Shown piece after piece: positions 4,012 through 51,491 of a stretch of DNA of 64,000 nt. How positions within the stretch are numbered: position 1 is the stretch's first letter; every line of letters begins with the position of its first letter. Below the pieces are notes generated by a model, which worked only from the letters and a program-made list of their open reading frames with translations, made no database searches and was not told the DNA's origin. The DNA is from a virus. Made by a program: the position numbers and the translations under genes. The DNA is taken from the IMG/VR virus record IMGVR_UViG_3300045988_159775. One strand, written 5' to 3'.

Positions 4012-4338
4012 TTACTCTTTATAACTGTCAAAGACTTCTTCAATCTTCGCTACCGCTGCGACATCGTATATTAAATAACGACTTGAAAGAGTTTCATGAA
4101 TTATTATCGGCTCATCAACAAATTCCTTTAATACCGTATTGTCGTCCAAACTTGAAATTTCGGGAACGTTCCGTATTTCGTCCCATAGCTTATTGAAAGC
4201 ATCCACTAATAACCCATCTTCCATGAGCGTATTCGACAAATAACGCATCCGGGGTACAGAAGTATCAATTTCAATAGCTGCTAATTGTAGGTCAATTTCT
4301 AACGGCTCTTTCATAGCCGTAACTTTCTTTGAATACAT
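4012..4338 (-). CDS. hypothetical protein
   Basis: I chose the internal ATG at 4338 (MYSKKVTAMKEPLE), which lies just downstream of the stop of the upstream gene at 4346. Confidence 0.45.
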   Translation of the reverse strand: MYSKKVTAMKEPLEIDLQLAAIEIDTSVPRMRYLSNTLMEDGLLVDAFNKLWDEIRNVPEISSLDDNTVLKEFVDEPIIIHETLSSRYLIYDVAAVAKIEEVFDSYKE

Positions 4339-4345: not shown

Positions 4346-5494
4346 TTATAGTGTTTTAGTTTTAGGAACGAATTTTGAACGCTGTTTACCCTCACCGATA
4401 ATCATTTTCCAGTACTTCTGGAATTCGCATAACCACATTTCAATCTGATGCAAGGTTATCCCCTCGTACATCATTAAGTTGGAATCTTTTTTGTATTCGT
4501 TGTACTCATTCCGGTTATAAATGAAATACTTCTTATTTTTGTAATCCCAACCCAGATACGGAAACGGTTCACTCTTTTCTTTCTCTATATCCTCAAGCAT
4601 GGAATCTGCGCAATCTCTTAACCAATAGATAGCTTTCTTTTGCTCTCGAACGGTTCTAAGACTGGGGTAAATAAGCCGGATGCCTATAGAAGCACCGGGA
4701 CCAACATTCGTAAAGGCGTTTTGATCGAACTTCATAAATTTCTTCTTCGTATAACGCCCAATATACGTAAAGTCCTGATAAAACTCATGAGCAATGAAAT
4801 CAGCAACCGCTGGAAAGGTCTTCAAATACTCTATAATATCCTCCGGCTTCTTAGCTATGACAACCTTTGCTATAAGTTCGTTCATATGCTTATGAAGATG
4901 AGGTATTACTACACGAGTGTAACAATAATCTCTCGGTTGACCGGGAGTTGCTTGAGAATTTATAAGATACGCTGTTGTGTAAGGATTCTGACCGGAAGAT
5001 CGTATTCCAGCAATAAAACGCGAAAATTCATCTTCATCATATTCTTCCCAATCCGGTATTCCGTTACGCCATTGCTTTGCTGAAATGAGATCATCCTTTC
5101 CTTGAGCTTGTTTAAGTCCTGACTTGATAGGTGCTCCAAACATATCCATTTGGAGCGTCTTTCCTTTAGGTTCAAACTCAAAAGTTTCGGGATTGTTAAA
5201 GAAGCGGAAAACCATCATCTTCCAAATAAGGTTTTTAAGAGAAAGACTTTTATCAAGAAGAATGTTTTTGATTTGCCATTGGCTATTTCTATCCAATTCC
5301 CGATATACGTTGGTAAACTTCGATTCTTGAAATATCTTGTTATCTGTCCAAGGACGCTCTTTTTGGTCAATAAACCTCCGTTTCCAGATCATCTGACGTT
5401 CGTACATAGTCTCAAAGAATAACCTCAAATGAGGTTTATAAACCTCCAAGGATTCATCCGGAAGTTTGCTATACCAAGCTGAATTTTCAAACAT
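4346..5494 (-). CDS. aGPT-Pplase-like protein (alpha-glutamyl/putrescinyl thymine pyrophosphorylase family, putative DNA base hypermodification enzyme)
   Basis: The N-terminal block YERQMIWKRRFIDQKERPWTDNKIFQESKFTNVYRELDRNSQ matches the family signature as I remember it (W-x-R, PWT-D, F-x-N-V-Y-R-E-L-D-R). It has not been checked against an HMM. Confidence 0.55.
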   Translation of the reverse strand: MFENSAWYSKLPDESLEVYKPHLRLFFETMYERQMIWKRRFIDQKERPWTDNKIFQESKFTNVYRELDRNSQWQIKNILLDKSLSLKNLIWKMMVFRFFNNPETFEFEPKGKTLQMDMFGAPIKSGLKQAQGKDDLISAKQWRNGIPDWEEYDEDEFSRFIAGIRSSGQNPYTTAYLINSQATPGQPRDYCYTRVVIPHLHKHMNELIAKVVIAKKPEDIIEYLKTFPAVADFIAHEFYQDFTYIGRYTKKKFMKFDQNAFTNVGPGASIGIRLIYPSLRTVREQKKAIYWLRDCADSMLEDIEKEKSEPFPYLGWDYKNKKYFIYNRNEYNEYKKDSNLMMYEGITLHQIEMWLCEFQKYWKMIIGEGKQRSKFVPKTKTL

Positions 5495-5495: not shown

Positions 5496-5828
5496 TTAAA
5501 GATTTTTTGAATTTACTCTCATTATGAATTCTCGTTTTGCTTCCAATACTCCGCGTTGCATTAATTTCAAGAGTTGAGTTTTGGGAAGTTTTCTGAAAGG
5601 ACGCTTTGGATTTGTTATAAGACGGATATTTCTAATATCAAAATTACACATATTTTCCGTATTCTTTTCCTTACCTACGAAATAAGCTATTACTAAAGGC
5701 AAATACTCATTACCATGCATCTTCGATATTTCAAAAAGTTTATTGCCCCAAACGCTTTCATCCTCGTCTTTAACAATATCCCCAACACGGAAATATTTCC
5801 AATAATTATTATTGCTACTTTCTTTCAT
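5496..5828 (-). CDS. hypothetical protein
   Basis: 110-aa ORF tightly packed against 4346..5494. Confidence 0.5.
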   Translation of the reverse strand: MKESSNNNYWKYFRVGDIVKDEDESVWGNKLFEISKMHGNEYLPLVIAYFVGKEKNTENMCNFDIRNIRLITNPKRPFRKLPKTQLLKLMQRGVLEAKREFIMRVNSKNL

Positions 5829-9972: not shown

Positions 9973-11061
9973 TTACTTCATTCCCGTGTGACCAAAACCT
10001 CCGTCACCGCGTTCCGTCACATCGTCAAACTCATTTACTAATTCAAAATCCGCCTTAACAACGTTTTCAACAAATACAAATTGAGCAATTCTCTCTCCTT
10101 TCTCAAAGAATACCTTTTCACTACCATGATTTATCAAAATTACGTTACATTCCCCACGATAGTCAGCATCAATCGTACCCGGTGCGTTAAGGCAAGTAAT
10201 ACCTTTCTTCAAAGCCAAACCGCTACGAGGACGACACTGTACTTCAACGTTCTCCGGCAGTTGCATGTAAAGTCCTGTATGAATCATGCGCCGTTCTCCC
10301 GGTTCTAATGAAAAATCCTCAGCAGCCTTTATATCCGCTCCAGAACTCTGACTTGTAGCGTAAACGGGCAATTCTCCACCCTCCTTAACAATGATTTTAA
10401 TCTTAACCGTTTTACGGGATTCATGAAAGTTTTCAACGAAAATTTGATTAAACTGATCGACTGTAGGACGGTATAACAAATCAGTTAACTTTTCAATATC
10501 TCCTCCTAAATCTTTAGCGATATTCTCAGCAAAACTCCGGAATTCGGATTCTGATAAATTCCGTTCCCGAATCAATTTCGCCAACTCTTTTACGCCAATA
10601 GATTTTTTAACAAAATGTTGTTTGATGAGTTCTCCAGAATTTTCGTCAATCATGAAAACTGGTATATCGCGTTTGATAGCCATCCGCAATTCCGTCTCCA
10701 CTCCGCCTTTAATCTCTCCAAGAAATACTGAGATACCGTCATTTTGCTCGATATAATCAAACATATGCTCCCGATAAAAATCCAACTCGCCGCTTTTCTC
10801 CAATCCCGGATTCCAGCCGTTTTGTTCCATTTCGATATGATCGTAAAGATCGTGGAACGCTTCGTGAATAGAATTATCAAAATCATTTTCAATAACTTCT
10901 TCCTCCGACAAGAAACAATGATGTAACTCAATTGTCGTATCCTCTGAGAGATCGTCAATGTATTTTTTTAAGGCGGTTTCAAATTCTCCTACTAACTTCT
11001 TTACATCTTGATCTTTTGGGGTAAAATGTAAACTTACTACTAATTTTTTCTTCTTTTCCAT
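9973..11061 (-). CDS. dut: dUTPase with an N-terminal extension of about 215 aa
   Basis: The C-terminal domain carries SSGADIKA, RPRSGLALKKGI, GTIDADYRGE and GDGGFGHTG. The N-terminal part (DGISVFLGEIKGGVETELRMAIKRDIPVFMID) looks like a nucleoside 2-deoxyribosyltransferase/DUF4406-type Rossmann domain, at low confidence. Confidence 0.8.
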   Translation of the reverse strand: MEKKKKLVVSLHFTPKDQDVKKLVGEFETALKKYIDDLSEDTTIELHHCFLSEEEVIENDFDNSIHEAFHDLYDHIEMEQNGWNPGLEKSGELDFYREHMFDYIEQNDGISVFLGEIKGGVETELRMAIKRDIPVFMIDENSGELIKQHFVKKSIGVKELAKLIRERNLSESEFRSFAENIAKDLGGDIEKLTDLLYRPTVDQFNQIFVENFHESRKTVKIKIIVKEGGELPVYATSQSSGADIKAAEDFSLEPGERRMIHTGLYMQLPENVEVQCRPRSGLALKKGITCLNAPGTIDADYRGECNVILINHGSEKVFFEKGERIAQFVFVENVVKADFELVNEFDDVTERGDGGFGHTGMK

Positions 11062-11314: not shown

Positions 11315-14047
11315 TTAAAGGAAAGCGTACTTAAATCCTGTAGTTATAAGATTAGAACCTAACATAGCAAGCCAAAAACTTGAACTGATGTCATCGTGGT
11401 TTCCGACCGAACACAACCCTTTATCTGTGAAAGCTACTGAACCTAAATCTTCAAAAATTAAATCTTTTACATTTTTTGAATAATCATCCCCGATAGGAAT
11501 ATGATATTTTCCCCGTTCGAATCTAATTGCCATCCCCGGCCATCCACTCTTGAGATCATACTTATCTATTCCCGTAGTGTGTCCTACAACGGGAAGTCCT
11601 TGGCGATCTGCTTCTTGGACAAATATCTGCTGAAAAGTATTCTGCTCCAATACCATAGAATCTGGTCTAAACTTTGCATTAATTCCTCTCAAAGTTTGCA
11701 TTTGCTCGTTAAACGTCAAGCCCTTTTCTCTAAAGAAATTCAACAGCCACATTTCTCCGGTCTCATCATCCACTCCCCAAGTCGTAAATACGGTATAGTC
11801 ACTTCCTACGTTTGCCGATATAGCAAAGTCGCAACCCACTACTACTTTATTAAACTTAATCGGAAAATCATCCCTATTTCTCACCAATACATAATTTTCC
11901 ATACGTACCAAGGAACGTTCCAAAACCTTTAACGGGAAAATAGACGCTTCATTCGTAATAGGTCTACAAAGGTTCTCCCGGCTGAAAATGATATTTCCTT
12001 GCGTAGCTCTCTTATCCAGAAGATCGAAGAAACTCCAACGGTGTGGCCAAAGTATTCGCCCGTCTGGGAAGATAGCCGGATATTCAATAACAAACCAACC
12101 TTTCTTAGTTTTCAAGTCTCCGTAAAGATCGCTTGCGTGGAACGGCGTTCCCACTACTACGATTTGACCACCGGGTACGAGCATGTTCATGATTACGGAA
12201 TGAAAATAGTCAATGCTCTTCTGCCTTTGTAATTGACTGTATATGACGTTATCTTTCAGTCCATCATCTACTACTATCCAGAACGGGTGAGCACCACGTA
12301 CAGAGCTTCCAAAACCCTTACACGTCAACCTCGCACCGTTCTTACATACTATATTCGTACTCGCCCACGCTCCAACGGCTCTCGTATCCGGAAAAAGACG
12401 CTCTCTCAATACGTCATTCCCCTCAATCGTACCCTTAAGTATTTCCATAAGGTCTACCGACTGCTGAAGTGAGAAAGAGAATAAATACCCACGGTTGGAA
12501 TTCGAACGCGTAGGACGAGCAGAAAAATGACTTCCACGGGGTTTAGAATATCCATATAATTTCCAAGCAGCGTATGCGTTGGAGAAATAGTAAGAATTAT
12601 GAGTTACCGTTCCATCTCCTAATAAAAATCTATGATCTCCGTCCGTAGTTATTGAAACGTACTCTCCACGCCCCACGTCAGTAATCTTTATAGAAGAAAC
12701 AACGCTTGGAGTTATTCCCTCAATCGTACCCCAATCTTTATTTGAAGTTTTTTCTTCCCAATTGTAAATCATCTTTTTTCTGGGAATCTTAACGGGTATT
12801 TGATCGATTTTTCCTGATATTGAAACTCCCCACCATTCATACATCCTCTTAAGTTGCTTATTGAACTTCTCCCCTCCGGAAAGATAAGTTCTAAACCCTA
12901 AACTATCAGCAAGTCTTTTTACGTCTTCAACTAAACGTTTATTGATGTTACCAAAGTGATATCCGTTGCTCCATAAATCTCCATCCGAATCTAAAAGCCC
13001 CGCAAGTAATTGTAGCCGGACGGCTTTAGAATTATGTAAATAAACATGCGGTATATGTTTATTGTAAAGAAGATTATACCCCTTTAAATACAAATTGAGT
13101 TTATTCTTAGTTTTGCAAGATATGACTTTTCTTCTTATATTAGACAAAAAACCTTTTCTGGAAGTTGTCATATCGAGTCTTTCCGCATATTCATCTAAAT
13201 ATTCTACAACTTCCAAATCTTCCGTAGTTATTTTTTGATTATTTGAATTTCCATCTCCTAACCAATAACCCAAAAAATAAGGTTCTATCAAAACTTTTCG
13301 TTCTGGCGCTTCCCAAGCAACCTTGAATGTTCTTATTCTCTCTTTTATGAAATTTTCAGAATAAGACAAAAGAGTTGACATATCAATATCTACAATATGC
13401 TTTTCATGATCTTCCAAGCAATTACCTCTTTTGTCTATTCTTATGCAAGTATTTATGTGACGACTGTTAACTGTATAGCTATCTCCCTTGCTTTGATCAA
13501 TTCTGTACATATGATCATCCCAACCTCTATGAACGGCAGTGACTTTACGTGGAGTAGAATCTACCCCCATTAGCAAATCTCCAACTTTAATGTCTTCGAC
13601 TTTTTTTATGCGTCCATCAAACATTAAAACGGGAGTACCAACTGCTTCGCACTTTCCGTGGTCGCGCGCCGCTTCTATACAAAGTTTCTTATGTCTATGT
13701 ACGAGATCTCCCCATTCTATGTGGTGCCAACTGAGTTGAAAATCCGGTAAAACTGAAGTAATGAAATACGTCAAATTATGAGTTCTTAAAGTCTCTTCAA
13801 TAGACTCCGATAGTCGCTCAGTATATTTAGGCGCAAAATCCACGTCAGTTTTGCCCGTATACATCACTTCAAACGTATCCCGAACTAAGTTATCAATAAC
13901 GAAATCTAAATCACCCTCCGATCCAAAAAGCAATTCATTTATTCCTCTTTCGTCCAAACCCTCTATTATTTCATCAACAACGTTTAAGCACTGCAATCTG
14001 TGCATTGGGGTTTGTAAAATTAATCCTCCGTTTTCTGAAATAGGCAT
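11315..14047 (-). CDS. terL: terminase large subunit interrupted by an intein
   Basis: The P-loop AARDHGK|C...THN|S is interrupted by the intein. Also present: Walker B FWIVVDDG and nuclease motifs VVVGCDFAIS and HDDISSSFWLA. The extein is 558 aa. Confidence 0.85.
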   Translation of the reverse strand: MPISENGGLILQTPMHRLQCLNVVDEIIEGLDERGINELLFGSEGDLDFVIDNLVRDTFEVMYTGKTDVDFAPKYTERLSESIEETLRTHNLTYFITSVLPDFQLSWHHIEWGDLVHRHKKLCIEAARDHGKCEAVGTPVLMFDGRIKKVEDIKVGDLLMGVDSTPRKVTAVHRGWDDHMYRIDQSKGDSYTVNSRHINTCIRIDKRGNCLEDHEKHIVDIDMSTLLSYSENFIKERIRTFKVAWEAPERKVLIEPYFLGYWLGDGNSNNQKITTEDLEVVEYLDEYAERLDMTTSRKGFLSNIRRKVISCKTKNKLNLYLKGYNLLYNKHIPHVYLHNSKAVRLQLLAGLLDSDGDLWSNGYHFGNINKRLVEDVKRLADSLGFRTYLSGGEKFNKQLKRMYEWWGVSISGKIDQIPVKIPRKKMIYNWEEKTSNKDWGTIEGITPSVVSSIKITDVGRGEYVSITTDGDHRFLLGDGTVTHNSYYFSNAYAAWKLYGYSKPRGSHFSARPTRSNSNRGYLFSFSLQQSVDLMEILKGTIEGNDVLRERLFPDTRAVGAWASTNIVCKNGARLTCKGFGSSVRGAHPFWIVVDDGLKDNVIYSQLQRQKSIDYFHSVIMNMLVPGGQIVVVGTPFHASDLYGDLKTKKGWFVIEYPAIFPDGRILWPHRWSFFDLLDKRATQGNIIFSRENLCRPITNEASIFPLKVLERSLVRMENYVLVRNRDDFPIKFNKVVVGCDFAISANVGSDYTVFTTWGVDDETGEMWLLNFFREKGLTFNEQMQTLRGINAKFRPDSMVLEQNTFQQIFVQEADRQGLPVVGHTTGIDKYDLKSGWPGMAIRFERGKYHIPIGDDYSKNVKDLIFEDLGSVAFTDKGLCSVGNHDDISSSFWLAMLGSNLITTGFKYAFL
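12596..13651 (-). mobile_element. intein with LAGLIDADG homing endonuclease domain (352 aa)
   Basis: It starts at Cys133 (CEAVGTPVLMFDG) and ends VTHN followed by Ser485. Two LAGLIDADG motifs are present (YFLGYWLGDGNS and LLAGLLDSDGDL). Boundaries were checked at the nucleotide level (acg gta act cat aat | tct). Confidence 0.8.
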
Positions 14048-14132: not shown

Positions 14133-14933
14133 TTAATACTCAATTGTTTCGTCAATTCTACGCATGAGCATTTTGTACATTTCATCTTTTTCCTCCTTTT
14201 TCAATTCATCGTCCGTATCAATAGCGACTTTCATACGCTGAATATCTTGATTAAGGACTTTTAGCATGCCTGTTATTTCTTTCAAAATCGTATTTCTACG
14301 CAGGTCTTTACTAAAGGTGAATTTGAATTCGTGCGTCCCCTTAGTATATTGTATAAGTCCAAAGGTATGAAGAAGTGTCAAAAGTTCTTTTGCTTCCGCA
14401 TAATTAAGATTTGTAGAGCGCACTACATTAGAAAGGCGGCAATAGTAATTCTCAGAATCCTCTACTCGTCCGCCCTCGGTAATGATCGTGAAAAGTTTCT
14501 TACAAGATTCCTCAGCCTTAAGACGGTTAGAAGAATTGCTCAAGAAATCTCCTATTGTCTTTTTGGTATTATCTCCGTCTCTTTTGAGATCAAGATAATC
14601 TTTGATAACCTGATCTTCCAAAATAACTACTTCAAGACCATTATTCTTGGCAATCTCGATTGTTTTCTGAGAAGTAGACGGATGCAAACAAGCCATAATA
14701 AATACGCTTTGTTCTTCCGGTAAACATACCGTTCTATTGTCGCATTCTTCCTTTGATCGATCAGTTGACGCAGTAGGTTCTTTCACTTCTTCTTTGTTCT
14801 CCCCATCTTCAGTTTTCTTAGTACGTTTCGGACGAGGTTTTAACGTACCATTTGCAATGGCGGCTTCGCGTTCCTCTTTTGTGAGTCTCTTTCGCTTTGG
14901 CGCTTCTTCCGTTTTGTTTTCCAATTCTGACAT
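14133..14933 (-). CDS. hypothetical protein (small terminase subunit by position only)
   Basis: 266-aa ORF directly upstream of terL with a basic/acidic N-terminus. No motif was recognised, so the TerS idea rests on position alone. Confidence 0.5.
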   Translation of the reverse strand: MSELENKTEEAPKRKRLTKEEREAAIANGTLKPRPKRTKKTEDGENKEEVKEPTASTDRSKEECDNRTVCLPEEQSVFIMACLHPSTSQKTIEIAKNNGLEVVILEDQVIKDYLDLKRDGDNTKKTIGDFLSNSSNRLKAEESCKKLFTIITEGGRVEDSENYYCRLSNVVRSTNLNYAEAKELLTLLHTFGLIQYTKGTHEFKFTFSKDLRRNTILKEITGMLKVLNQDIQRMKVAIDTDDELKKEEKDEMYKMLMRRIDETIEY

Positions 14934-18940: not shown

Positions 18941-20359
18941 TTACTTTTTGAGAATTTGACGGTAAATTTCCTTTGATATAGCTTTTATTACTGGGATAGC
19001 TACGCTGTTACCGAATTGCTTGTAAGATTCGGTATTTGAAACCGCTATTTTAAACTCCATATTGTCCTTATACCTATCTTTTGACTTCTTATTCATCCAG
19101 CCGTTTCCCTCTATGAAATATCCTTGTAACCGTCCGGCTTCTACTGGAGTTAACTTCCTTGGGTTCTTTCCTTTGTCGGCTTGATAAATTAGTATTTCGT
19201 TCGCATCTTTATAGTATCTTGCTAAGAGAGTTGAACAATATTCACTATCTCTATCCCAAAGTGAATATCCAAAGCCATTGCCTTTCTTTTCATTCCTTTT
19301 CTTTCTTCTTTGATAACCACGTAGAGCAACGTCACTAATAGAGTAATGATCAGTTGTTGATTCTGGCTCGAATATATCCGAAAGTTTTGTTTTGATTTTT
19401 TCTTCTTGTACCTTTTGAGGATCATAAATATGCGTTCCATTCGGTTTTAATCCGTAAGGGAAATTAAAATCTTTGATATGTATTGTTTTATTATACCAAG
19501 CTATTATAAACAAACGCTCACGATTTTGAGGAACACCAAAATTTTTAGCATTCAAAACTTCATATCTATAAGAATATCCCAATTCAGAAAGAGTCTCCAA
19601 TATAACTCTCAAAGTCTCTCCTTTCTCGTGATTCTTTAATCCTTTTACGTTTTCTAAGAAAAGAACCCTTGGCGCCTTGGCGTTTTGTACCTTTTCCTTA
19701 ACTATACTGGCTATATTGAAAAACAACGTACCCCTTGTATCCTCAAATCCCTTTCTTTTTCCAGCAATAGAAAAAGGTTGACAAGGGAATCCTGCACAAA
19801 GTATATCGAAGTCCGGTATTTCTGAAAGTTTCTGTTTTGTTATATCGGAATTGAATAACTTGTAATCATTCTCAAATAAGTTTGGAGAAATATCTTTGTA
19901 ATTATGTTCATAGGTTATTCGGGCGTTCTTATCAATTTCACTCGCAAATACGCATTTAGCTCCAAGAGAATGCAGAGACTGATGAAAACCTCCTATTCCC
20001 GCAAACAAATCTATGAAAGTTACACGTTCAGAATTGCGTGACTCGTAAGCATTGATCTTTTCATTAGAATAAATCCCTACCTTAGAACTATGAAAGTCAC
20101 TTCCATTGTGGTTTACGGCATTGCTACAGTAACGTTTCGTCAGTCTATCTCTCGCGTTTACTAACTTCTCCCGTTTACGTATCGCGTACTGAACTTGACC
20201 GGGTATAGTTCCGTCTACCCAAAGGGCGTCTTTCAGTATTCTTTCTCGTTCTTTGGGAGGCATATTCATTGCCCTTGATACGAGATTGAGAAAGCGTTCC
20301 TCTTTTGTTATAGCCCAAGATATTTTCTTTATAACTCTTTGTGCAGTTTCTACGTTCAT
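18941..20359 (-). CDS. dcm: DNA (cytosine-5)-methyltransferase with an N-terminal extension of about 110 aa
   Basis: Motifs I FIDLFAGIGGF, IV GFPCQPFS, VI ENVKGL, VIII QNRERLFII and X GNSVAIPV. Confidence 0.9.
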   Translation of the reverse strand: MNVETAQRVIKKISWAITKEERFLNLVSRAMNMPPKERERILKDALWVDGTIPGQVQYAIRKREKLVNARDRLTKRYCSNAVNHNGSDFHSSKVGIYSNEKINAYESRNSERVTFIDLFAGIGGFHQSLHSLGAKCVFASEIDKNARITYEHNYKDISPNLFENDYKLFNSDITKQKLSEIPDFDILCAGFPCQPFSIAGKRKGFEDTRGTLFFNIASIVKEKVQNAKAPRVLFLENVKGLKNHEKGETLRVILETLSELGYSYRYEVLNAKNFGVPQNRERLFIIAWYNKTIHIKDFNFPYGLKPNGTHIYDPQKVQEEKIKTKLSDIFEPESTTDHYSISDVALRGYQRRKKRNEKKGNGFGYSLWDRDSEYCSTLLARYYKDANEILIYQADKGKNPRKLTPVEAGRLQGYFIEGNGWMNKKSKDRYKDNMEFKIAVSNTESYKQFGNSVAIPVIKAISKEIYRQILKK

Positions 20360-21398: not shown

Positions 21399-22832
21399 TT
21401 AAATCGCTTCTATATCAGACTTCCATTCTGGAGTTTCAAGTAAATCCTTTAATTCCCGTCCGGTTATAACGGGATATGGATAAACTCTTTCTTGTTCTCC
21501 CTCTGAAACGGTACGATAGATCGGAGGATACCAGCGATCATATTCTTCAAGATGTACTACGGCTTCCGTCTGCGCTACGTTTGTAATACGAATTGACCAA
21601 TTATCATCCTTTGAATAAAGTTCGTCCATAGGAATGACAATATATTTTTGATAATCTGATAAATTATCGCTTGGCGTATATTCCGCAACGTCATCTGAGG
21701 TTAACGTCCTAACGGATTTTGAACCGGGGAATTGCTTTGCTATTTCCTCGTCCATCTCTTCTTGAGTCATTACTCCTTTATAAAGGACTACTTTGTAGAA
21801 TGCACAAGTAGTAGGCGCTGCACCGCTTTGTCCGCCCTCTTGATCGAAAAGATAAAAACCGTTCAAGTGTAAGAAATTGAACTTATAATCTTCCAATCCA
21901 CTATTTGTAATGCTATAAACTAATTCAGCATCTGGTAGTACTACTTTTGGATCAGCGGTTCTTGTGGAATACAAATAACTATAACCTCTTACTCCCCTTA
22001 CATAAATCGTATCTGGAAGAGGTGTAGCATATCTGAATAACCTCGCATACGTTTGTATATCTGCGCTCTCTCTAAAGAATGAACAAAGAAACGTAACAGA
22101 GACATTATTGTTATAAATAGGATGATAATCAGCCAATATTGTAAAATCTTCTCCAACTCCTATCGTATCGGCAAGGGAGATAGAAACGCGATCATCATAG
22201 CCGTCAAATACCAATGCTCCCTCGTAATTAGCAGGAAGTAACTTAATAGTTATTGGAACGTTTTCTTGTCCCTCTGCTAATTTAGCAAAAAATATGCCTA
22301 TGGACAAACTTGTCTCACTTTCTTCAAAAATATGTTCATCGCTATAAGGATAAGATTGTATTCCATTAGTCTCTGTCCTTGTAGTATAACGGTTGGCTGA
22401 TCCGTCTCTCCATGAATATGTCGTTAAAACAGTACCCTCAATGAGTCCGCTCACTTCAAAATTAAAACCAAGAACTTCTTTAGTTACTCTTTGAGTAGTA
22501 CCACTGGGATTAATAGCTAATATCCAAGTAGATTCCGTTGGATTATTTACAGTACGCGTTAAATTAGTATCAATAACTTCCAAAGAGGAAGTTGTATACG
22601 TCCATTCGCTTATGGAAGTCGAATACATCCCATATCCACTCGAACCAGCAAAAGCGAAATTTCTCAAATTAAGAATATGACCTTTCTCTCCAACCATTTG
22701 TTCTGGATTAGGGCTATCATTATTCTTAGTAGAAAAATCCCAAGCATCAAACAACTTATACGTTTTACCCCCGCCACCGGAAGCGCGGTATGCAGGGGTA
22801 ATATTTCCTAATTTTCCAAAACGTCCTAACAT
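21399..22832 (-). CDS. LamG/concanavalin-A-like lectin domain protein
   Basis: GALVFDGYDDRVSISLADTIGVGEDFTILADYHPI is a typical Laminin_G_3-type block. The rest is unknown. Confidence 0.5.
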   Translation of the reverse strand: MLGRFGKLGNITPAYRASGGGGKTYKLFDAWDFSTKNNDSPNPEQMVGEKGHILNLRNFAFAGSSGYGMYSTSISEWTYTTSSLEVIDTNLTRTVNNPTESTWILAINPSGTTQRVTKEVLGFNFEVSGLIEGTVLTTYSWRDGSANRYTTRTETNGIQSYPYSDEHIFEESETSLSIGIFFAKLAEGQENVPITIKLLPANYEGALVFDGYDDRVSISLADTIGVGEDFTILADYHPIYNNNVSVTFLCSFFRESADIQTYARLFRYATPLPDTIYVRGVRGYSYLYSTRTADPKVVLPDAELVYSITNSGLEDYKFNFLHLNGFYLFDQEGGQSGAAPTTCAFYKVVLYKGVMTQEEMDEEIAKQFPGSKSVRTLTSDDVAEYTPSDNLSDYQKYIVIPMDELYSKDDNWSIRITNVAQTEAVVHLEEYDRWYPPIYRTVSEGEQERVYPYPVITGRELKDLLETPEWKSDIEAI

Positions 22833-27451: not shown

Positions 27452-27715
27452 TTAATCGGTTAAAACTTTTGTTAATTTCTTTCTGGCGTGAAAGATACGA
27501 CTTTTCAGCGTACCCATTTCTATCCCCATAATATTTGCTATTTCATCATACCTATATCCGCAAATCAAATAGTTGATTGGTACGCGGTATATTTCCGGTA
27601 GAGCAGCAATAGCACTTCGAACGTCCAGCGATCGCGAATAATCATCCGTGTCTTCTGTTAAGAGGTCTAAACGCTCAAACATGCTTCTTTCTTCCTCATC
27701 CACGTTATCTCTCAA
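27452..27715 (-). CDS. ECF sigma factor, region 4 fragment
   Basis: LPEIYRVPINYLICGYRYDEIANIMGIEMGTLKSRIFHARKKLTKVL matches sigma-70 region 4.2. It has only a TTG start, which lies inside a T7 run. Confidence 0.8.
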   Translation of the reverse strand: MRDNVDEEERSMFERLDLLTEDTDDYSRSLDVRSAIAALPEIYRVPINYLICGYRYDEIANIMGIEMGTLKSRIFHARKKLTKVLTD

Positions 27716-27953
27716 AAAAACTTTTGTTGCTGTATCTCTTATGAAGATTTATAAAAGAGTTCTTCAAAATCGTATATCCCCAAGCCTTGAGATTCGTTCC
27801 GTCTTCAAATTTATCCTTGTTAGAAAGCATACGGAGTATAACGTCACTTGCGAGGTCACGTGCCATCTCTACGTCTCCGGATAGAAGAACCTTAGCGCGA
27901 AGTAATAACGGCTCATACAAGGCAGATATTCGATCATCCAACGTGTCTTTCAT
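27705..27953 (-). CDS. ECF sigma factor, region 2 fragment
   Basis: ARDLASDVILRMLSNKDKFEDGTNLKAWGYTILKNSFINLHKR matches sigma-70 region 2. The ORF ends 2 codons after the T7 run. Confidence 0.8.
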   Translation of the reverse strand: MKDTLDDRISALYEPLLLRAKVLLSGDVEMARDLASDVILRMLSNKDKFEDGTNLKAWGYTILKNSFINLHKRYSNKSFFER

Positions 27954-40260: not shown

Positions 40261-41574
40261 CTATTTGCCTAAGCGTTTACGGAGATCAGCCATTGACATT
40301 TTTGCGCGCGGTTTTTCCTCCTCTTCATCATCTTCTTCCTCGTCACTATCTTCATCTCCATCCTCTTTCAAGGCTTCGCGAATAGCTTCGCGCAAATCAT
40401 CATCGGACATTGATTTTTTGACTGAAACGTCTAAATCATTATCTCGTATATATTTCTTCAATTCGTTACGATCTAAGTCATCCAAACCATCATCCTCGTC
40501 ACTATCCGCTTCTGATTCTTCCTCCTCGTCTTCGTCATCCTCTGGTTCAGGCTCAGGTTTTTTCTTTCCGGATTTAGAAGTTTTCTTTGGAGCAGGTTTT
40601 TCTTCCTCCTCTTCATCGTCCTCATCTTCTTCCGGTTCTACGACTTTTTTGGAAGTCTTTTTTGAAGAAACTTTCTTTTTAGGTTCGTCCTCATCATCCT
40701 CGTCTGAAGAATCAGCGTCATATTGCTCTTTTATTTCTTCTACGATCTCCAACCAACCCTCGTCTTCAAACATTTCCAAATCATTTTCCTCATCGAAAGT
40801 TTGCAATCCCTCTAAAGCACGTTCAAAATCTCTCATTTCGTAACGAGGAGTAAGTTCTGAAAGGGGCTTCAAGTTCATGAAATATTCTATCTCTTCATCT
40901 GTCAAAGGACGGGCGGAAACTTTTTTAGGGAAAGATACTTCATAATAGTTTTCACCTTTCTTTTTGTTTGGTTTTGAGAGTTTCTTTACCAATACAGGTA
41001 GTCCCTCATCCGGATCAGTAAACGGATCAACTTCAATTGGATCATCATCCTCTTCTGAGAAAGAAAGTTTATTCAAAGCGTCACGAACCATTTTCTTGAA
41101 TTCCCAAACTTTTGCTTTCAATTCTTCGTCTGGATTGATCTCATCAGCATAGGCTAACCAAGTGAACTGAGCTCCGAATCCGTCTTGTCCAGTGAAGCAA
41201 GATAAGCGGTCAGAATCCTTTGACCATTTCTTCTTAGCGTACTTCATGAATTCATCGCATATATCTTTTTTCGTTCCTCCGTGAACCACTGAGTCATTAA
41301 CCGTACCGCGATAAGTATTGCCGTCTTGTCCTGTAAAAGTCAACCAATAACACTTACGCTTAACGTAAAAATTATCTTCGCCGGGATGAGCAGGGAAAAT
41401 ACGAATCTTAGTTGTTTTTCCATCTTCCAAACGCAAATACTCGTTAGAATTTTGAACACCGATCATTTCGTTGTCTTCATCTACTGTTTTTTTAAGACTC
41501 TTAATGGGAGTTGGCTTAAGTTTTGATCTAAGATCAGATGCTCCCTCACTTTTTGAAGTTTTTTTAGTTGCCAT
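40261..41574 (-). CDS. gp32-like single-stranded DNA-binding protein with a long acidic, repeat-containing C-terminal half
   Basis: KTTKIRIFPAHPGEDNFYVKRKCYW resembles the gp32 IRFLP block. It sits next to the recombinase. The C-terminus carries an EED-rich tail plus a HeH-like motif (LKKYIRDNDLDVSVKKSMSDDDLREAI). Confidence 0.5.
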   Translation of the reverse strand: MATKKTSKSEGASDLRSKLKPTPIKSLKKTVDEDNEMIGVQNSNEYLRLEDGKTTKIRIFPAHPGEDNFYVKRKCYWLTFTGQDGNTYRGTVNDSVVHGGTKKDICDEFMKYAKKKWSKDSDRLSCFTGQDGFGAQFTWLAYADEINPDEELKAKVWEFKKMVRDALNKLSFSEEDDDPIEVDPFTDPDEGLPVLVKKLSKPNKKKGENYYEVSFPKKVSARPLTDEEIEYFMNLKPLSELTPRYEMRDFERALEGLQTFDEENDLEMFEDEGWLEIVEEIKEQYDADSSDEDDEDEPKKKVSSKKTSKKVVEPEEDEDDEEEEEKPAPKKTSKSGKKKPEPEPEDDEDEEEESEADSDEDDGLDDLDRNELKKYIRDNDLDVSVKKSMSDDDLREAIREALKEDGDEDSDEEEDDEEEEKPRAKMSMADLRKRLGK

Positions 41575-42118: not shown

Positions 42119-42460
42119 TTATTCTTCATCATCGTTTGAAACAGACTTTCTGTAAACCTTTGGCTCATTTTCTTCCTTTTGAGCGTCTAAGATATGAATG
42201 CCTATTACGGCATATCCTATTATGTCATGTAAAGTATCGCGAATGCTTTCAAAGTTAGGTTCTTTGCCCTGCATACTGTTTTCTACCATATTCCGGTATC
42301 TACGTACCTTATCCCAAAGATGAACCATATTGCCGTTCAATCCTAAATCAAAAGAAGCGCCTTTATAGTCAGCGTTCTTTTTTACCAGCAAATCGCTCAT
42401 GCCATTGAAAATGCCATTGATACTCTCTTTGGTCATCTCTTTTCCTTGTTCCTTATTCAT
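42119..42460 (-). CDS. DUF1599-like (MazG-superfamily, nucleotide-modification-associated) protein
   Basis: KKNADYKGASF ... WDKVRRYRNM ... ESIRDTLHDIIGYAVIGIHIL fits the K-x-x-DYG / DK-x-x-R / D-x-x-NY pattern as I remember it. Confidence 0.5.
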   Translation of the reverse strand: MNKEQGKEMTKESINGIFNGMSDLLVKKNADYKGASFDLGLNGNMVHLWDKVRRYRNMVENSMQGKEPNFESIRDTLHDIIGYAVIGIHILDAQKEENEPKVYRKSVSNDDEE

Positions 42461-42471: not shown

Positions 42472-43098
42472 TTAAATGTTTTCTAATTCACTGAAATCCA
42501 TATTCGTATTAGGAAAATGAAGTTTCAAATCTTTTATCAAAATCTCTTTTGCTTTTAGAATGTTTTCTTTCGCCCTAAATAACAATTCTTCAAAATCGCT
42601 ATTGCCTAATTTCATTTCACGTTTAATGAACATAATTAAAGCTAACCAATCACAAACTTTTACGAAATTATTTTCAATAGACGTTGAACTAATTATGTTG
42701 TTTATCATCATTTCTGAAGCGAAAGTCATTTGATCAACGACTCCTTTGACTTCCTCCTTTAATTCTTCACTAACTTTATAACGAACAAAACTATTTAGAG
42801 CGCGCCTAATATCGTATCCGTTATACTCATTGTATTTTATTTCATGTGAAAGGTCTCTCAAGATAAACGACTCATCCCAATCGTGTAGTAAGGCGCGCGT
42901 AATTACTTCTAACTTAAATTCATTTACATTCGCATCCTCTGATTGTCCAAATATATCTTCCAATAGGACGCGTGCAAAGATTGCTACTTTGTAGGAATGT
43001 TGACTTACGCTTTCTTGTTTAAATACGTCTTTCTCCTGCCACTGTATGATGTTATCAAGACGCTGGAGATACTTACCATTAAAAATTTTGCTTAACAT
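42472..43098 (-). CDS. HD-domain 5'-deoxynucleotidase (YfbR-like)
   Basis: LQRLDNIIQWQEKDVFKQESVSQHSYKVAIFARVL and ALLHDWDESFILRDLSHEIKY parallel E. coli YfbR (LSRLKLINRW...ENVSEHSLQVAMVAHAL and MYHDASEVLTGDLPTPVKY). Confidence 0.7.
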   Translation of the reverse strand: MLSKIFNGKYLQRLDNIIQWQEKDVFKQESVSQHSYKVAIFARVLLEDIFGQSEDANVNEFKLEVITRALLHDWDESFILRDLSHEIKYNEYNGYDIRRALNSFVRYKVSEELKEEVKGVVDQMTFASEMMINNIISSTSIENNFVKVCDWLALIMFIKREMKLGNSDFEELLFRAKENILKAKEILIKDLKLHFPNTNMDFSELENI

Positions 43099-45950: not shown

Positions 45951-47626
45951 AACATTGACTTTAATTTATCTACGTCAATATCTATATTTGAAAAATCTAA
46001 ATCTACGTCAATATCTATTTCTTCCCCATTTGTTAAAGGTATTTTTATTTTCTTTTCGACTGGAATAATAATAACTTCTCCATTCTCCATTTCAATTACA
46101 AAATTCTCTGGGGCTTTAACACGCGTCTCGTTCAAAAATCTCTCGAACATAAGATCGTACTTCAATGGATCTACGTCTGTAATATGAAGACAATATGCTA
46201 CTAAACTACCACAAACTGAACCTCTACCCGTTCCGACCATTATGTCATTACTCTTACACCAATTTATAATATCCCAAAGGATCATAAAGTAGTCTACCAA
46301 GTCATTAGGAACAATTACTTTACATTCCGTTTCCAAGCGTTTCATATAAACGTCAAACTCCTTTTCGGGTAGATCGCCTAAACGCTCAGATACACCCTTT
46401 TCCAAAACTTTAAAGAAAAACTCAGTAGCATCCTTAACTTCAAATTTCGGTAGTTTACGCTCTCCGGACGGAATTTTGAATTCAATTTCTTGAGAAAGAC
46501 TAACGGCGTTTTCTATACCCTCTGTTATTACTTCAAACAAAGGCTCCACTTCATCTAACCAATCTATGTAGGCATTGAATGTATCTCGACAACTTTTGAA
46601 ATATTGGTCTTTAGCTTCTGGTATTGCTTCGCCTAAAACAGCATTGAGAGTTTTCTTCAATTCACTCATTTCCCGATCTAAATAATACGAATCATTTATC
46701 AAGATCGGACGAACGTATTTTTGATATTTAAGTATGTAAGTATCGAGGTTGGAAAGGTGTTTTTTGAATAAAGTCTCCGATACGTATTCAACCGTATCAA
46801 TTTGATAAAAGACTTTTGAAAATTTCTTCTTGTATGTCTTAATTAGTTTCCTAACTGTTTCCGGTTCATCTTTCAAATAATTGACTTCTGATTCCTTTGG
46901 AATAACGAGTGCTAAACCAGAGCCGTATTTATACAATTCATAATCGGGAATAAACCCACGATAAGTTACATTGACGGCTTTATTGATTTGTAAGAGATTC
47001 AACCATCCCTCAAAATTCAATACGTATAGTTTAAGTTCAAAGGTTTCTTGGTTGGTCTTTTCAGCATCATATTCTTTTGCTACTACGACCGTTTCGCCAA
47101 TAATAGATTTAATCCCTTTTTTATCGCAAAAAGTCTGAAAGGAGAGCGTGCCTGCTAAAGTATTCTTATCACAAATACCTAATGACTTAATGCCCATAAA
47201 CGCGGCTTTCCTCACCCAAGTTTCGCACCCTCCGCTTCCATTCAATATTTCATACTCTGAGTGAACTCCCAGATGAACGTAATCGGTTATAAATTCCTCG
47301 CTCGTTTTACCAAGATATTTGAAATCATTGAATTGAGGCTTAAAGATTACTTCATTATAACGGTTCTTGTCTTTTATGATAGCCGAATAATAAAATTTCT
47401 TGCCGAACTCAAACAGAATGTATTTAACCTTTTCCTCGTCCAAAAGATCGAATTCTTCATCTGAAAGAAGAAATGAGAAATCCTCATCAATTATCTTTCC
47501 GTCAAAGGGATGTAAGTATAAAAAGTCCCCAACTTCCTCGATAGAAATAATATCAGAACCCTCCAAAGAAGATTCTGATACTACTAAATTATTTTCCTTT
47601 ACCCAAAGGCTCAATTCTTCTGTCAT
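45947..47626 (-). CDS. dnaE: DNA polymerase III alpha (DnaE), N-terminal fragment (PHP domain and start of palm)
   Basis: PHP motif YVHLGVHSEYEILNG, then GTGRGSVCGSLVAYCLHITDVDPLKYDLMFERFLNETR, then a 57-aa non-canonical tail. Confidence 0.85.
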   Translation of the reverse strand: MTEELSLWVKENNLVVSESSLEGSDIISIEEVGDFLYLHPFDGKIIDEDFSFLLSDEEFDLLDEEKVKYILFEFGKKFYYSAIIKDKNRYNEVIFKPQFNDFKYLGKTSEEFITDYVHLGVHSEYEILNGSGGCETWVRKAAFMGIKSLGICDKNTLAGTLSFQTFCDKKGIKSIIGETVVVAKEYDAEKTNQETFELKLYVLNFEGWLNLLQINKAVNVTYRGFIPDYELYKYGSGLALVIPKESEVNYLKDEPETVRKLIKTYKKKFSKVFYQIDTVEYVSETLFKKHLSNLDTYILKYQKYVRPILINDSYYLDREMSELKKTLNAVLGEAIPEAKDQYFKSCRDTFNAYIDWLDEVEPLFEVITEGIENAVSLSQEIEFKIPSGERKLPKFEVKDATEFFFKVLEKGVSERLGDLPEKEFDVYMKRLETECKVIVPNDLVDYFMILWDIINWCKSNDIMVGTGRGSVCGSLVAYCLHITDVDPLKYDLMFERFLNETRVKAPENFVIEMENGEVIIIPVEKKIKIPLTNGEEIDIDVDLDFSNIDIDVDKLKSML

Positions 47627-48831
47627 AACTTTCCAAGATAATCATGTTTCATTGGAATAGTTAACCTTGATGCAAAGAAATTCTTAGCTAATATTGCCAT
47701 ATCCCAATCGTGCGCACCCTCCGCTTCCATGAGCTCTATTTCAGATATAGCCGTTTTCCTAATAGCATCCTTTTCTTCTACCGACTTGCAAACCTTGTTT
47801 TTTTGCTTGTATTTAACGTAAATACTTAATAGCCGATATACGTTATGGAAGAAGTGAGAAAACTCTTGTAATTGCTTTATTTCATCTTTGTTTACTTCTC
47901 CACCTCGTTGATCTTCCAAAAGGTTACGGATAATTAAATCAAAGTAATAGTTTATTTCTATGAACTTATTTGTCGGAACGTCATGAGAAAAATTGAAGTC
48001 CATAGGTTTTTCCTCCGCTGGAGTAGATTCGTAAAGAGAGTGGCCACCGCCTTGTTTTTCAAATTCTTCGTCCATTTCATCCGCCGTACCATTCCAATTG
48101 TAAATATGAAGACTTTGAGAATTATGAGTTTGAGTCCCCAACTCTATTCCCAAACAAGAAGCTATAACTTCAGATAAGAAACTGAATTGGAATACGTTCG
48201 TTGGAAGTCCCCAATGCAAGTCGTTACTCCGATTAGCTATTGTAGTTATTAGTTTTCCGTTTCTAATTTTGAACATAACTAAATCATTGCACGGTATATC
48301 ACGCGATTTACTCCCTAAATCTAAAACAGGATTCCAAATCGACATAACGACTTGACGACTATTAGGATTACCATATAAAATCCTAATAGCTTCCAAAACT
48401 TGATCAAAACCTCTTTGAACTGAAACGTTTGAAGAAAATGGATCATCGGAACGAGAACCCCAATGACGTAAACGAAAACCGTATGGCGCATGAAATACAA
48501 TTCCATCATCGCTAAAGTCTTTCATACGAGAATTAAAGATATTCAAGAATTCAACGTCACTTCTTCCGCTTACTATCCAAATCGCTTCGGCAAGAAGAAA
48601 GAATACATTAATATCTCTACCATAACCTCCTGTGCAACGCTTGTAAGGATTCGTTATAATAGTTTTGACATCCAGTAGTTCTTTTACTTCCCCGTTCCGG
48701 CTTTCTTCTAAATCCTTATTGTTAAGAATGTAATTGTTAATAACCGGGTAAATAATCCCAAAATTCTCCGCTTTTGCTACACCATAATCTGGTATGAAAC
48801 AATTAGTTTTAGGTAAAATATTATCTTTCAT
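47623..48831 (-). CDS. thymidylate synthase-family enzyme, probably a deoxyuridylate hydroxymethylase or an atypical TS
   Basis: NPNSRQVVMSIWNP, DIPCN (catalytic Cys), ANRSNDLHWGLPTNVFQF and SLHIY. At 402 aa it is longer than ThyA. Confidence 0.75.
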   Translation of the reverse strand: MKDNILPKTNCFIPDYGVAKAENFGIIYPVINNYILNNKDLEESRNGEVKELLDVKTIITNPYKRCTGGYGRDINVFFLLAEAIWIVSGRSDVEFLNIFNSRMKDFSDDGIVFHAPYGFRLRHWGSRSDDPFSSNVSVQRGFDQVLEAIRILYGNPNSRQVVMSIWNPVLDLGSKSRDIPCNDLVMFKIRNGKLITTIANRSNDLHWGLPTNVFQFSFLSEVIASCLGIELGTQTHNSQSLHIYNWNGTADEMDEEFEKQGGGHSLYESTPAEEKPMDFNFSHDVPTNKFIEINYYFDLIIRNLLEDQRGGEVNKDEIKQLQEFSHFFHNVYRLLSIYVKYKQKNKVCKSVEEKDAIRKTAISEIELMEAEGAHDWDMAILAKNFFASRLTIPMKHDYLGKL

Positions 48832-50276: not shown

Positions 50277-50304
50277 TGTTTTTACAATTTTAGTTAATAA
50301 TTTT

Positions 50305-50949: not shown

Positions 50950-51128
50950 ATATCCGCTTTCTTAATATTTAACTCAGCACGGCGGCGAAGAACTTCTTTC
51001 AAATCTTTGTGTGCAAAAAGAATAGCGCCGTCAGACTTTCTCACCAGTTGATAGTAGAAGTTTTCTTCACCATTTGGTCGATCATAGATATAATCTATAT
51101 AATACGGAGTAGGGATGTTTGTTGCCAT
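50937..51128 (-). CDS. hypothetical protein (first gene behind cassette C)
   Basis: 63-aa ORF directly downstream of promoter cassette C. Confidence 0.5.
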   Translation of the reverse strand: MATNIPTPYYIDYIYDRPNGEENFYYQLVRKSDGAILFAHKDLKEVLRRRAELNIKKADICIL

Positions 51129-51288: not shown

Positions 51289-51491
51289 ATAAAACTAATC
51301 ATCCTAAATTCTAAAGTAGCAGAATATGATATATTTACATCTTTACAGAAGATGTAAGCGAACAGATATATGATTCCGATACTTTAGGAAAAGAGCGTCT
51401 TGTTTAAAATAGAGCATTTGTTCTGGTAAAACAAATCTTGGTTCTCTTATTGTCTAACAAAATTAACTCCTCTTAAAATATAAACTTTGTA

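Follow-up and report, generated by a model that had tools for sequence, protein, structure and literature searches.

Clade 1 of the alpha-glutamyl/putrescinyl thymine pyrophosphorylases (aGPT-Pplases) was reportedly predicted by Iyer and Aravind in 2013, and members of this clade are encoded by every thymidine-hypermodifying phage studied, with no activity assigned to any of them. The characterized pathways of thymine hypermodification all require a kinase and an amino acid transferase (Lee 2018/2021), and the enzymes that have been shown to decorate 5-hydroxymethyldeoxyuridine (5-hmdU) belong to clade 2, namely M6 gp51, ViI gp247, PaMx11 gp46/PUGT and PhiW-14 gp109 (PMC8989533; PMC11472151; PMC13458397), with Cys247 as the proven nucleophile (PMC11472151; PMC8989533). 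The locus described here belongs to the virus record IMGVR_UViG_3300045988_159775, a stretch of 64,000 nucleotides that was analyzed in its entirety (hereafter, the window), and centers on a standalone clade-1 gene (4346..5494, minus strand; hereafter, the target) that starts with ATG and encodes a protein of 382 amino acids. This gene is part of a module that includes a predicted dUMP hydroxymethylase and neither a 5-hmdU DNA kinase nor an amino acid:DNA transferase (AADT). Such modules, supplemented with radical S-adenosylmethionine (rSAM) enzymes, glycosyltransferases or methyltransferases, are found in an abundant clade of gut Bacteroidales phages and recur in unrelated mobile or cellular settings.

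The only Pfam match of the target protein is PF18723 ('HMUDK_hel, 5-hmdU DNA kinase, helical domain'), with an E-value of 1e-46 and a score of 160 bits, compared with the curated cutoff of 25 bits, and the hidden Markov model (HMM) of the family built in this analysis recognizes the protein at 7.5e-110. None of the NCBIfam models matches the target, a sequence search against PDB returns nothing, and PHROGs yields phrog_2396 (function unknown; 1e-40) along with a weak match to phrog_800, 'terminase small subunit'. This last label traces to SP10 gp186, a mis-annotated protein that has been experimentally shown to be a 5-hmdU DNA kinase (PMC8989533), and the target was not taken to be a terminase small subunit. 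PF18723 is the aGPT-Pplase clade 1 of Iyer and Aravind under its current name 'HMUDK_hel', because ViI gp160, which Lee et al. 2018 describe as the second paralog with a 'DNA-glycosylase-fold', matches this model only (4e-83) and does so over its full length, the ortholog of ViI gp160 in Klebsiella phage PWKp5 carries the label 'aGPT-Pplase1 domain-containing protein', and BFVD lists one structural neighbor of the target under the name 'Pplase1 alpha-glutamyl/putrescinyl thymine pyrophosphorylase clade 1'. PF18724, the model of clade 2 (amino acid:DNA transferase), has no match in the target at E<=1, with ZC01_009 serving as the positive control (4e-27). A sensitive search shows that the PF18723 family comprises 2,278 representative clusters, most of which consist of standalone proteins of 290-360 amino acids.

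The first-pass annotation of the window had singled out this open reading frame (ORF), which contains YERQMIWKRRFIDQKERPWTDNKIFQESKFTNVYRELDRNSQ, for the block YERQMIWKRRF-x6-RPWTDNKIFQESKFTNVYRELDRNSQ, read as the signature of the aGPT-Pplase family. The ORF and the motif are both there, on the minus strand, and the profile matches bear out the placement in the aGPT-Pplase superfamily, more precisely in clade 1, rather than in the family at large or in clade 2. The biochemistry of Lee and Weigele, which that annotation extended to the target, was established for a different clade: the enzyme proven to decorate 5-hmdU is that of clade 2 (PF18724), and clade-1 proteins have never been shown to be necessary.

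The AlphaFold2 (AF2) model of the target is confident (pLDDT 95, pTM 0.93) and predicts an all-alpha fold of the helix-hairpin-helix (HhH) DNA glycosylase-like type. When this model is compared with BFVD using Foldseek, SP10 gp186 is the best match (3e-14), proteins of phiRSL1 and PhiW-14 as well as the 'Pplase1 clade 1' entry are retrieved, too, and clade-2 'amino acid:DNA transferases' come next, with a probability of 0.98. The best matches in PDB are the PUGT structures 8Z2N and 8Z2M followed by the HhH enzymes QNG1, AlkA and OGG1, none of them significant.

Across 130 diverse members of the family, R33, R65, D68, F233, G267, C356 and K360 are invariant, and W49, N62, R97, D241, E352, E357 and Y361 are conserved in at least 90%; the conserved N-terminal block (R..W..FTNVYRELDR) and the C-terminal L-C-E..K-Y motif are both present in the target. 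This set of residues is unchanged when the kinase-linked ViI gp160, SP10 gp186C and ZC01_013 are included and, with the exception of E352, is kept in 75 of the 76 homologs from cellular genomes or metagenome-assembled genomes (MAGs). A local hhalign comparison of the family with 45 clade-2 sequences, which is weak (E 0.025), superimposes E352 and C356 of the target on E243 and C247 of clade 2 and places FPAVADFIAHEF on FGPWIGFKVADM; by inspection, IEMWLCEF of the target also resembles VETILCKW of clade 2. An hhalign comparison of the family with just one clade-2 sequence was uninformative. SP10 makes alpha-glutamyl-T without any clade-2 gene (PMC5889632, Table 3), and therefore, its PF18723 domain (gp186C) is the sole candidate for the glutamyl transferase of that phage. 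Taken together, the residue conservation, the fold matches, the clade-2 alignment and the gene content of SP10 favor the view that the target is a Cys-dependent enzyme that would work like those of clade 2, although it is not a member of that clade.

The likely source of 5-hmdU is a ThyA-family protein of 402 amino acids (47623..48831, minus strand; PF00303, 2e-24), a predicted dUMP hydroxymethylase (5-hmdUMP synthase). In this family, Asn at position 177 is diagnostic of dUMP and Asp of dCMP, L143 is replaced by Asp or Glu in hydroxymethylases, and D169 is replaced by Asn in 5-hydroxy-dCMP synthases (PMC13326640). The window protein carries D143 (RDIPC), D169 (RSND) and N177 (LPTN), its nearest relatives in cultured phages, with 39-47% identity, are SPO1 gp29 and the enzymes of SP8, SP10 (labeled 'dUMP hydroxymethylase'), CP-51 and the M6-like ZC01 ('deoxyuridylate hydroxymethyltransferase'), and its C-terminal extension resembles those of the SP10 and YungSlug enzymes. 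Because this ThyA homolog is, judging from the diagnostic residues and the nearest relatives, a dUMP hydroxymethylase, 5-hmdU is likely to replace dT in the phage DNA. The window further encodes a dUTPase (9973..11061, minus strand; PF00692, 3e-28, covering only residues ~230-360), with a likely role in the clearance of dUTP and, possibly, dTTP, and a YfbR-like HD-domain 5'-deoxynucleotidase (42472..43098, minus strand; PF12917, 7.9e-15), a candidate dTMP-depleting enzyme. The dUTPase is fused to a 220-amino acid N-terminal extension of unknown function that is lacking in the dUTPases of the relatives (148-234 amino acids), has no match in Pfam or PDB (residues 1-220) and, by eye, may resemble the folds of nucleoside 2-deoxyribosyltransferases and DNPH1-like proteins. 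Neither a dCMP deaminase nor a dNMP kinase was found in the genome.

Most of the nucleotide metabolism reported by the first-pass annotation is borne out by these results: the ThyA-family enzyme with hydroxymethylase-like motifs, the dUTPase and the YfbR-like nucleotidase are all there, and the pathway genes are, as described, scattered rather than clustered. The DUF1599 protein ('nucleotide modification associated domain 1'; 42119..42460, minus strand) does match PF07659 (E 2.4e-4), at 21.8 bits, that is, below the 25-bit cutoff. The same annotation noted that the P-loop 5-hmdU kinase, pyridoxal phosphate (PLP)-dependent and rSAM enzymes are missing from the window, which is the case, and offered two explanations, namely, that these genes lie outside the window or that the chemistry differs from the described systems. 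These could be weighed once the entire genome was available.

The exact target protein is present on eight metagenome contigs. The genome was reconstructed from ena:ERZ28577415 COST17-1...scaffold_177 (101,774 bp), in which proteins encoded at either end of the window recur unchanged, and IMGVR_UViG_3300045988_134063 (100,071 bp), in which the target copy is 95% identical and the proteins on which the walk relied have 99-100% identical counterparts. The walk over the DNA beyond the window closed the circle back onto the window and gave a genome of ~100 kb. The additional ~37 kb contain genes for structural and lysis proteins (SU10-like capsid protein, M23 peptidase, baseplate J, GH108 lysin and two BACON-domain proteins) and for one Radical_SAM+SPASM protein. 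Every large ORF in the window is encoded by the minus strand, and the GC content is ~37%. The portal protein is 36-42% identical to those of SPO1-type phages (Herelleviridae), Chryseobacterium phage MA9V-3 and the B. thetaiotaomicron phages DAC and SJC, and one Bacteroidales MAG bin contains a relative of 97 kb; hence we infer a ~100-kb myovirus of the SPO1 lineage that infects gut Bacteroidales, with the human-gut origin resting on the sample names. There is no close cultured relative by megablast of the locus against the GenBank phages and no PF18723 homolog in the Bacteroidota phages of GenBank by tblastn.

In the whole genome, the Pfam scan detects neither PF18748 nor any other small (AAA_33-type) P-loop kinase, and it likewise finds no match to PF18724 and none to PLP, FAD or GNAT enzymes; the proteins of SP10 and ZC01, used as positive controls, show that the models work. 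Among the genome ORFs of at least 50 amino acids, Walker A motifs are found only in UvrD, SbcC, a RecA-like protein, DnaB and two structural proteins, the 477-amino acid product of 21399-22832 and the 1033-amino acid tail fiber (a looser GK[G] match). The search with the SP10 kinase domain (gp186N) against the genome by tblastn was negative, and the AADT HMM (45 clade-2 sequences) found nothing even at E<=10. The same holds for 155 other members of the family: there is no AADT or HMUDK-like kinase within 10 kb of the target homologs in 79 loci of the phage clade or within 8 kb of 76 cellular homologs. The possibility that in YungSlug the kinase is split off upstream of the standalone homolog was considered and rejected because the 176-amino acid ORF in that position contains no P-loop and shows no similarity to gp186N. 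Thus, of the genes suspected to lie outside the window, only that for an rSAM/SPASM protein is found there, ~5 kb away, whereas the kinase and the PLP enzyme are absent from the ~100-kb genome as a whole, with Pfam, Walker A and tblastn searches all failing to reveal a 5-hmdU DNA kinase. Because there is no kinase, PLP enzyme or PF18724 in the entire genome, the evidence favors the alternative that the chemistry differs from that of the described systems. Further modification beyond hydroxymethyluracil (hmU) appears plausible, by a route that, from the gene content, would not be the described one.

The gene neighborhoods were compared across the relatives. In the phage clade (79 loci, 38-99% identity to the target), the target lies between the genes for the large terminase subunit (TerL) and the portal protein in relatives down to ~47% identity, and two small genes flank it in relatives down to ~55% identity. 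One of these (5496..5828, minus strand; 110 amino acids) ends 1 nt before the start codon of the target, has no family match and is a possible partner of the target; the other, also conserved (4012..4338, minus strand; 108 amino acids), starts 8 nt after the target stop codon. The slot between the target and the 108-amino acid gene is an insertion hotspot for glycosyltransferase, methyltransferase or rSAM cargo in the relatives: the target is followed by rSAM and TAGT genes in L136, by TAGT and FkbM methyltransferase genes in L099-L101, and by an FkbM methyltransferase gene in L147. A TAGT gene precedes the target in L145, a Dam-type methyltransferase gene follows the 108-amino acid gene in L135, and in L137 the order is TerL, rSAM, TAGT, dUTPase. 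The hydroxymethylase and the target are found together on 16 long contigs of the clade. In a divergent group of ~50-kb phages from IMG/VR (L148-L152), PF18723 (38% identity in L148:9884-15178) is followed by genes for a class-I methyltransferase, a dUTPase-like protein and a ThyA-like protein, and some clade-1 proteins may act on 5-hydroxymethylcytosine because this ThyA homolog has the dCMP hydroxymethylase signature, D143/D169/D177. One alignment of the family (A1) was too diverse to be used as a genome-scan query, and a smaller one (A4) was used instead; the A4 scan of IMG/VR returned mainly the same phage clade. A scan for sigma-70 promoters and terminators around the target, which is ill-suited to Bacteroidota promoters, found promoter-like sites to be no commoner than expected by chance.

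Beyond the phages, 76 distant PF18723 homologs were identified in GTDB genomes, from gut Alphaproteobacteria, Ktedonobacteria, Thermomicrobia, haloarchaea, DPANN, candidate phyla radiation (CPR) bacteria and Nitrososphaerales. A ThyA-like gene is located nearby at 9 of these 76 loci (within ~1.1 kb at 8 of them, and within 6 nt or overlapping at 4), and in 7 of the 9, this gene has the dUMP hydroxymethylase signature; those of L179 and L185 have F/Y at position 143 and are thymidylate synthase-like. The eight GTDB MAG contigs with adjacent or overlapping PF18723 and ThyA-like genes (L159, L164, L179, L185, L188, L224, L225 and L229) are assigned to Proteobacteria, Ktedonobacterales, Acidimicrobiaceae, Clostridia, Methylobacter, Nitrososphaerales and DPANN archaea, and some of them may be mis-binned phages or prophages. 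In L225, TAGT, PF18723 and hydroxymethylase genes form an operon. Thus, pairs of hydroxymethylase and PF18723 genes without a kinase turn up repeatedly in MAG contigs of unrelated bacteria and archaea, in some cases together with a TAGT gene.

The Radical_SAM + SPASM protein (318 amino acids; L010:18385-19341, equivalent to L009:17363-18319), which is encoded ~5 kb beyond position 1 of the window, has BtrN, an rSAM dehydrogenase, as its closest solved relative (1.5e-11). BtrN and the anaerobic sulfatase-maturating enzymes (anSMEs) oxidize C-OH to C=O. The location of the rSAM gene varies among the relatives, where it follows TerL, the target itself or the structural genes; it adjoins the TAGT glycosyltransferase gene in L136 and L137, and the target once. 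The SP10 rSAM protein gp185 was considered as a possible ortholog and dismissed for lack of similarity. Encoded ~10 kb downstream of the target, this BtrN/anSME-like protein is the likeliest candidate for a partner of the target or a tailoring enzyme.

From the family membership, fold, conserved residues, whole-genome gene content and neighborhoods described above, we infer a scheme for the presence of hmU in the DNA and for the catalytic activity, substrate and product of the target. The dUMP hydroxymethylase very probably makes 5-hmdUMP, the dUTPase and the HD nucleotidase would deplete dUTP and dTMP, and the replicated DNA would contain 5-hmdU in place of dT. The target would then act late, on DNA, immediately ahead of packaging: it would flip 5-hmdU out, Cys356, helped by Glu357, would attack C6 of the pyrimidine in a Michael addition, and the 5-CH2-OH group would be labilized, in the manner of clade 2, via an exocyclic methylene, with a nucleophile added subsequently. 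No 5-hmdU DNA kinase or clade-2 transferase would take part, and relatives would add TAGT glycosyltransferases, FkbM or class-I methyltransferases encoded in the same locus. A kinase-free substitution of this kind has a precedent in the C5-cytosine methyltransferases which, according to Liutkeviciute and colleagues, reportedly (2011) couple thiols or selenols to 5-hydroxymethylcytosine via the Cys-C6 adduct. In our assessment, there are even chances that the target is such a post-replicative enzyme, dependent on Cys356 and Glu357, acting on 5-hmdU in DNA without a kinase or an AADT, with the BtrN-like rSAM protein as the probable partner.

A number of observations weigh against this scheme. 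There is no direct precedent for a kinase-free step within the PF18723 family, no demonstrated activity was found in the literature for any clade-1 protein, and two of these, M6 gp55 and ViI gp160, were present in lysate mixes and are dispensable in vitro for phosphorylation and amino acid transfer (PMC8989533). The similarity to clade 2 is limited: the Foldseek match to PUGT has an E-value of 0.7 and TM-scores of 0.33-0.41, the local hhalign alignment, colinear over 163 columns, has a probability of only 2%, the global mode gave no usable alignment, and the clade-2 metal site (D24/D25, E222 and T223 in the Pplase2 numbering) could not be mapped, the N-terminal regions being left unaligned by hhalign. 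E352 is mostly replaced by Gln in the cellular homologs. With respect to the genomic context, 43 kb separate the target from the hydroxymethylase and ~10 kb separate it from the rSAM gene. Of the 32 long target-bearing contigs, 16 yielded no hydroxymethylase in a pattern-limited search, and a scan anchored on the DNA polymerase III alpha subunit did not reach those sub-clades. Furthermore, 67 of the 76 cellular loci have no hydroxymethylase within 8 kb, and therefore, the basal role of the family may not be hmU-specific.

A more radical version of this scheme, which we consider unlikely though worth stating, is that PF18723 proteins are autonomous, kinase-independent enzymes modifying 5-hydroxymethylpyrimidines in DNA, in which, with nothing but a hydroxymethylase upstream in the pathway, the Cys356/Glu357 pair directly substitutes or activates the 5-CH2OH group. 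The rSAM protein might then oxidize hmU to 5-formyluracil, instead of phosphorylation, the product might be glycosylated and O-methylated by TAGT and FkbM enzymes in the relatives, and the sub-clade with the dCMP hydroxymethylase-type enzyme would extend this chemistry to cytosine. If so, an abundant clade of human-gut Bacteroidales phages, along with diverse mobile elements of bacteria and archaea, would possess a new class of thymine hypermodification. Conversely, PF18723 could be a non-catalytic, helical DNA-binding or hmU-recognizing helper of the 5-hmdU DNA kinase, in which case the target would be a remnant in this phage or would serve some other enzyme as a targeting or reader protein. 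The current Pfam name implies such a role, as do UniProt and BFVD, which call relatives '5-hmdU DNA kinase helical domain-containing protein'; moreover, SP10 gp186 combines the PF18748 kinase with PF18723, the kinase gene is followed by PF18723 in ZC01 and adjoins it in M6-like phages, and M6 gp55 and ViI gp160 are dispensable for phosphorylation and transfer in vitro. However, a helper of this kind is improbable given that no kinase is encoded in this genome or close to the 155 other members, most members are standalone proteins, SP10 has no other candidate for the glutamyl transferase, and the invariance of the Cys-Glu pair and of Arg, Asp and Lys positions across >2000 clusters is characteristic of active sites, not of scaffolds.

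We also doubt that the target acts on mononucleotides, converting or hydrolyzing a pyrimidine dNMP (such as 5-hmdUMP or dTMP) prior to replication, alongside the hydroxymethylase and, in some genomes, a thymidylate kinase-like enzyme, in analogy to QNG1, a nucleotide glycosylase with the HhH fold. QNG1/DUF2419 is the second-best fold match in PDB, but not a significant one (E 0.8), and the closest structural relatives with known functions, PUGT and YuA Pplase2, act on duplex DNA. The operon-like overlaps of PF18723 and ThyA-like genes, the Tmk-like genes adjoining in L159 and L179, the presence of Tmk within 8 kb at 17 cellular loci, and the wide distribution of the family in the reduced genomes of CPR and DPANN, where salvage enzymes are frequent, are all compatible with such a role; nevertheless, much of the Tmk linkage reflects the alphaproteobacterial tmk-holB synteny, the SP10 domain is fused to a kinase acting on DNA (PMC8989533), and the gene is, in this phage clade, part of the late packaging module, where TerL and the portal gene flank it. 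There is, furthermore, little chance that the canonical pathway is intact but hidden, with a kinase or transferase that is too divergent, not of the P-loop type or supplied by the host, and yields an ordinary amino acid- or polyamine-modified thymine. Admittedly, about half of the ORFs in the genome have no family match, the ViI pathway genes are scattered over the genome, and the models are imperfect, given that even the M6-type kinase is a weak match to PF18748 (E 0.0026). Yet, this kinase is still flagged by the generic P-loop models (AAA_33, Zeta_toxin), the Walker A-containing ORFs of at least 50 amino acids include only helicases, SbcC, the RecA-like protein, DnaB and the two structural proteins, the 45-sequence AADT HMM is silent at E<=10, and the kinase and AADT are likewise missing around the 79 clade relatives and the 76 cellular homologs. 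Finally, the target might be unrelated to base modification, that is, a small terminase-like DNA-binding protein involved in packaging or a relative of repair glycosylases that shares the fold. The conserved location between TerL and portal down to ~47% identity, the weak match to phrog_800 and the RefSeq label of SP10 gp186, 'terminase small subunit', point in this direction, but a separate conserved gene (14133-14933; 266 amino acids) occupies the usual position of the small terminase subunit, directly upstream of TerL, and in other lineages, the family is found in nucleotide metabolism clusters rather than in packaging modules, which makes this explanation highly improbable.

Several other features of the genome were observed. 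The large terminase gene (11315-14047, minus strand) contains an intein with a Hint domain and a LAGLIDADG homing endonuclease (approximately residues 134-392 of 910), whereas the TerL proteins of intein-less relatives consist of ~556-618 amino acids. The DnaE-type DNA polymerase III alpha subunit is split (43111-47626, minus strand) into an N-terminal part (45947-47626) with the PHP domain and the beginning of the NTPase domain and a C-terminal part (43111-45159) with the rest of the NTPase domain, the fingers and HhH; a NUMOD3 homing endonuclease gene (45156-45950) is lodged between the two, and all three genes overlap by 4 nt. A sigma-70-like factor is encoded in two overlapping ORFs (27452-27953, minus strand), with regions 2 and 4 located in 27705-27953 and 27452-27715, respectively, which could be due to a frameshift, a truly split factor or a sequencing error. 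There is also a Dcm-type C5-cytosine DNA methyltransferase (18941-20359, minus strand; PF00145, 9e-87), and the genome shows no sign of a TET/JBP dioxygenase, which suggests that cytosine is site-specifically methylated on top of any thymine replacement. Two paralogous proteins (40261-41574 and 49032-50369, both minus strand) contain very acidic and lysine-rich low-complexity tracts, have no family match and share motifs such as VVEPEEDEDDEEEEE and ELK.YI...L..SVKKS.SDDD.R.AI. The tail fiber module extends over 57571-64000 of the window (minus strand) and L012:1-7589 and encodes an 806-amino acid protein, a 723-amino acid protein combining Mtd_N with a beta-helix, and a 1033-amino acid Mtd_N protein that runs past the window, its C-terminal part corresponding to the window ORF 62186-63814. 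The two BACON-domain genes beyond the latter are the only genes of the genome on the opposite strand. Scans of the window for tRNA and Rfam families found nothing. A gene-poor stretch of ~1.1 kb (50949-52037), flanked by the replication genes on one side and the gene of an acidic protein on the other, with the lowest GC content in the window (0.32) and no tRNA, Rfam family or significant repeats, could be a regulatory or origin region.

This locus and the other kinase-less modules separate the clade-1 protein from the kinase and AADT machinery, so that its function becomes testable. If the target is active, 5-hmdU would be turned into hypermodified thymine by a second route, and a prevalent lineage of ~100-kb gut Bacteroidales phages would carry non-canonical DNA, which would bear on the evasion of restriction and other defenses as well as on biases in sequencing and virome quantification, and would provide new DNA-modifying enzymes as tools.

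Comparison with the known systems brings out both the shared elements and the differences. The proteins most similar in architecture are ViI gp160, M6 gp55, PhiW-14 gp72 and ZC01_013, which, like the target, are standalone (~300-400 amino acids), match PF18723 over their full length and contain the counterparts of R33, R65, D68, C356, E357 and K360; these phages, too, encode a dUMP hydroxymethylase. The target is, however, only ~24-25% identical to these proteins and is embedded in the packaging module rather than next to a kinase or hydroxymethylase gene, and the respective phages possess, in addition, a clade-2 transferase and either one or two 5-hmdU DNA kinases, neither of which is present in this genome. 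The cluster of the PaMx11-like ZC01, for example, consists of a protein of the former clade 2 (PF18724, 'ADDT, amino acid:DNA transferase'), an FAD oxidoreductase, a GNAT protein, a P-loop kinase, a standalone PF18723 protein and a dUMP hydroxymethylase. The clade-2 proteins (M6 gp51, ViI gp247, PaMx11 gp46/PUGT, and the Pplase2 of YuA and 15599) share with the target a distantly related HhH-containing fold, and a Cys of the target, located on the C-terminal helix within the motif E-x-x-L-C, aligns, weakly, with their catalytic Cys247, but they have a different set of invariant residues, sequence similarity is marginal, and the target does not match PF18724; their substrate, 5-phosphomethyldeoxyuridine (5-PmdU), has no recognizable enzyme for its production in this genome. 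SP10 resembles this phage in belonging, by the portal protein, to the SPO1-type lineage, in the lack of a clade-2 gene and in the possession of an rSAM gene, gp185, adjacent to gp186, although gp185 has no detectable similarity to the rSAM protein found here, and gp186, a verified 5-hmdU DNA kinase, is a fusion of the PF18748 P-loop kinase (residues 35-193) with PF18723 (residues 313-598), whereas the target has no kinase domain. In SPO1 and SP8, where dT is completely replaced by 5-hmdU, the hydroxymethylases are 39-43% identical to that of the window. The phage described here combines a related portal lineage with a dUTPase and a deoxynucleotidase and, unlike SPO1 and SP8, in which tblastn finds no PF18723 gene, encodes a clade-1 protein.

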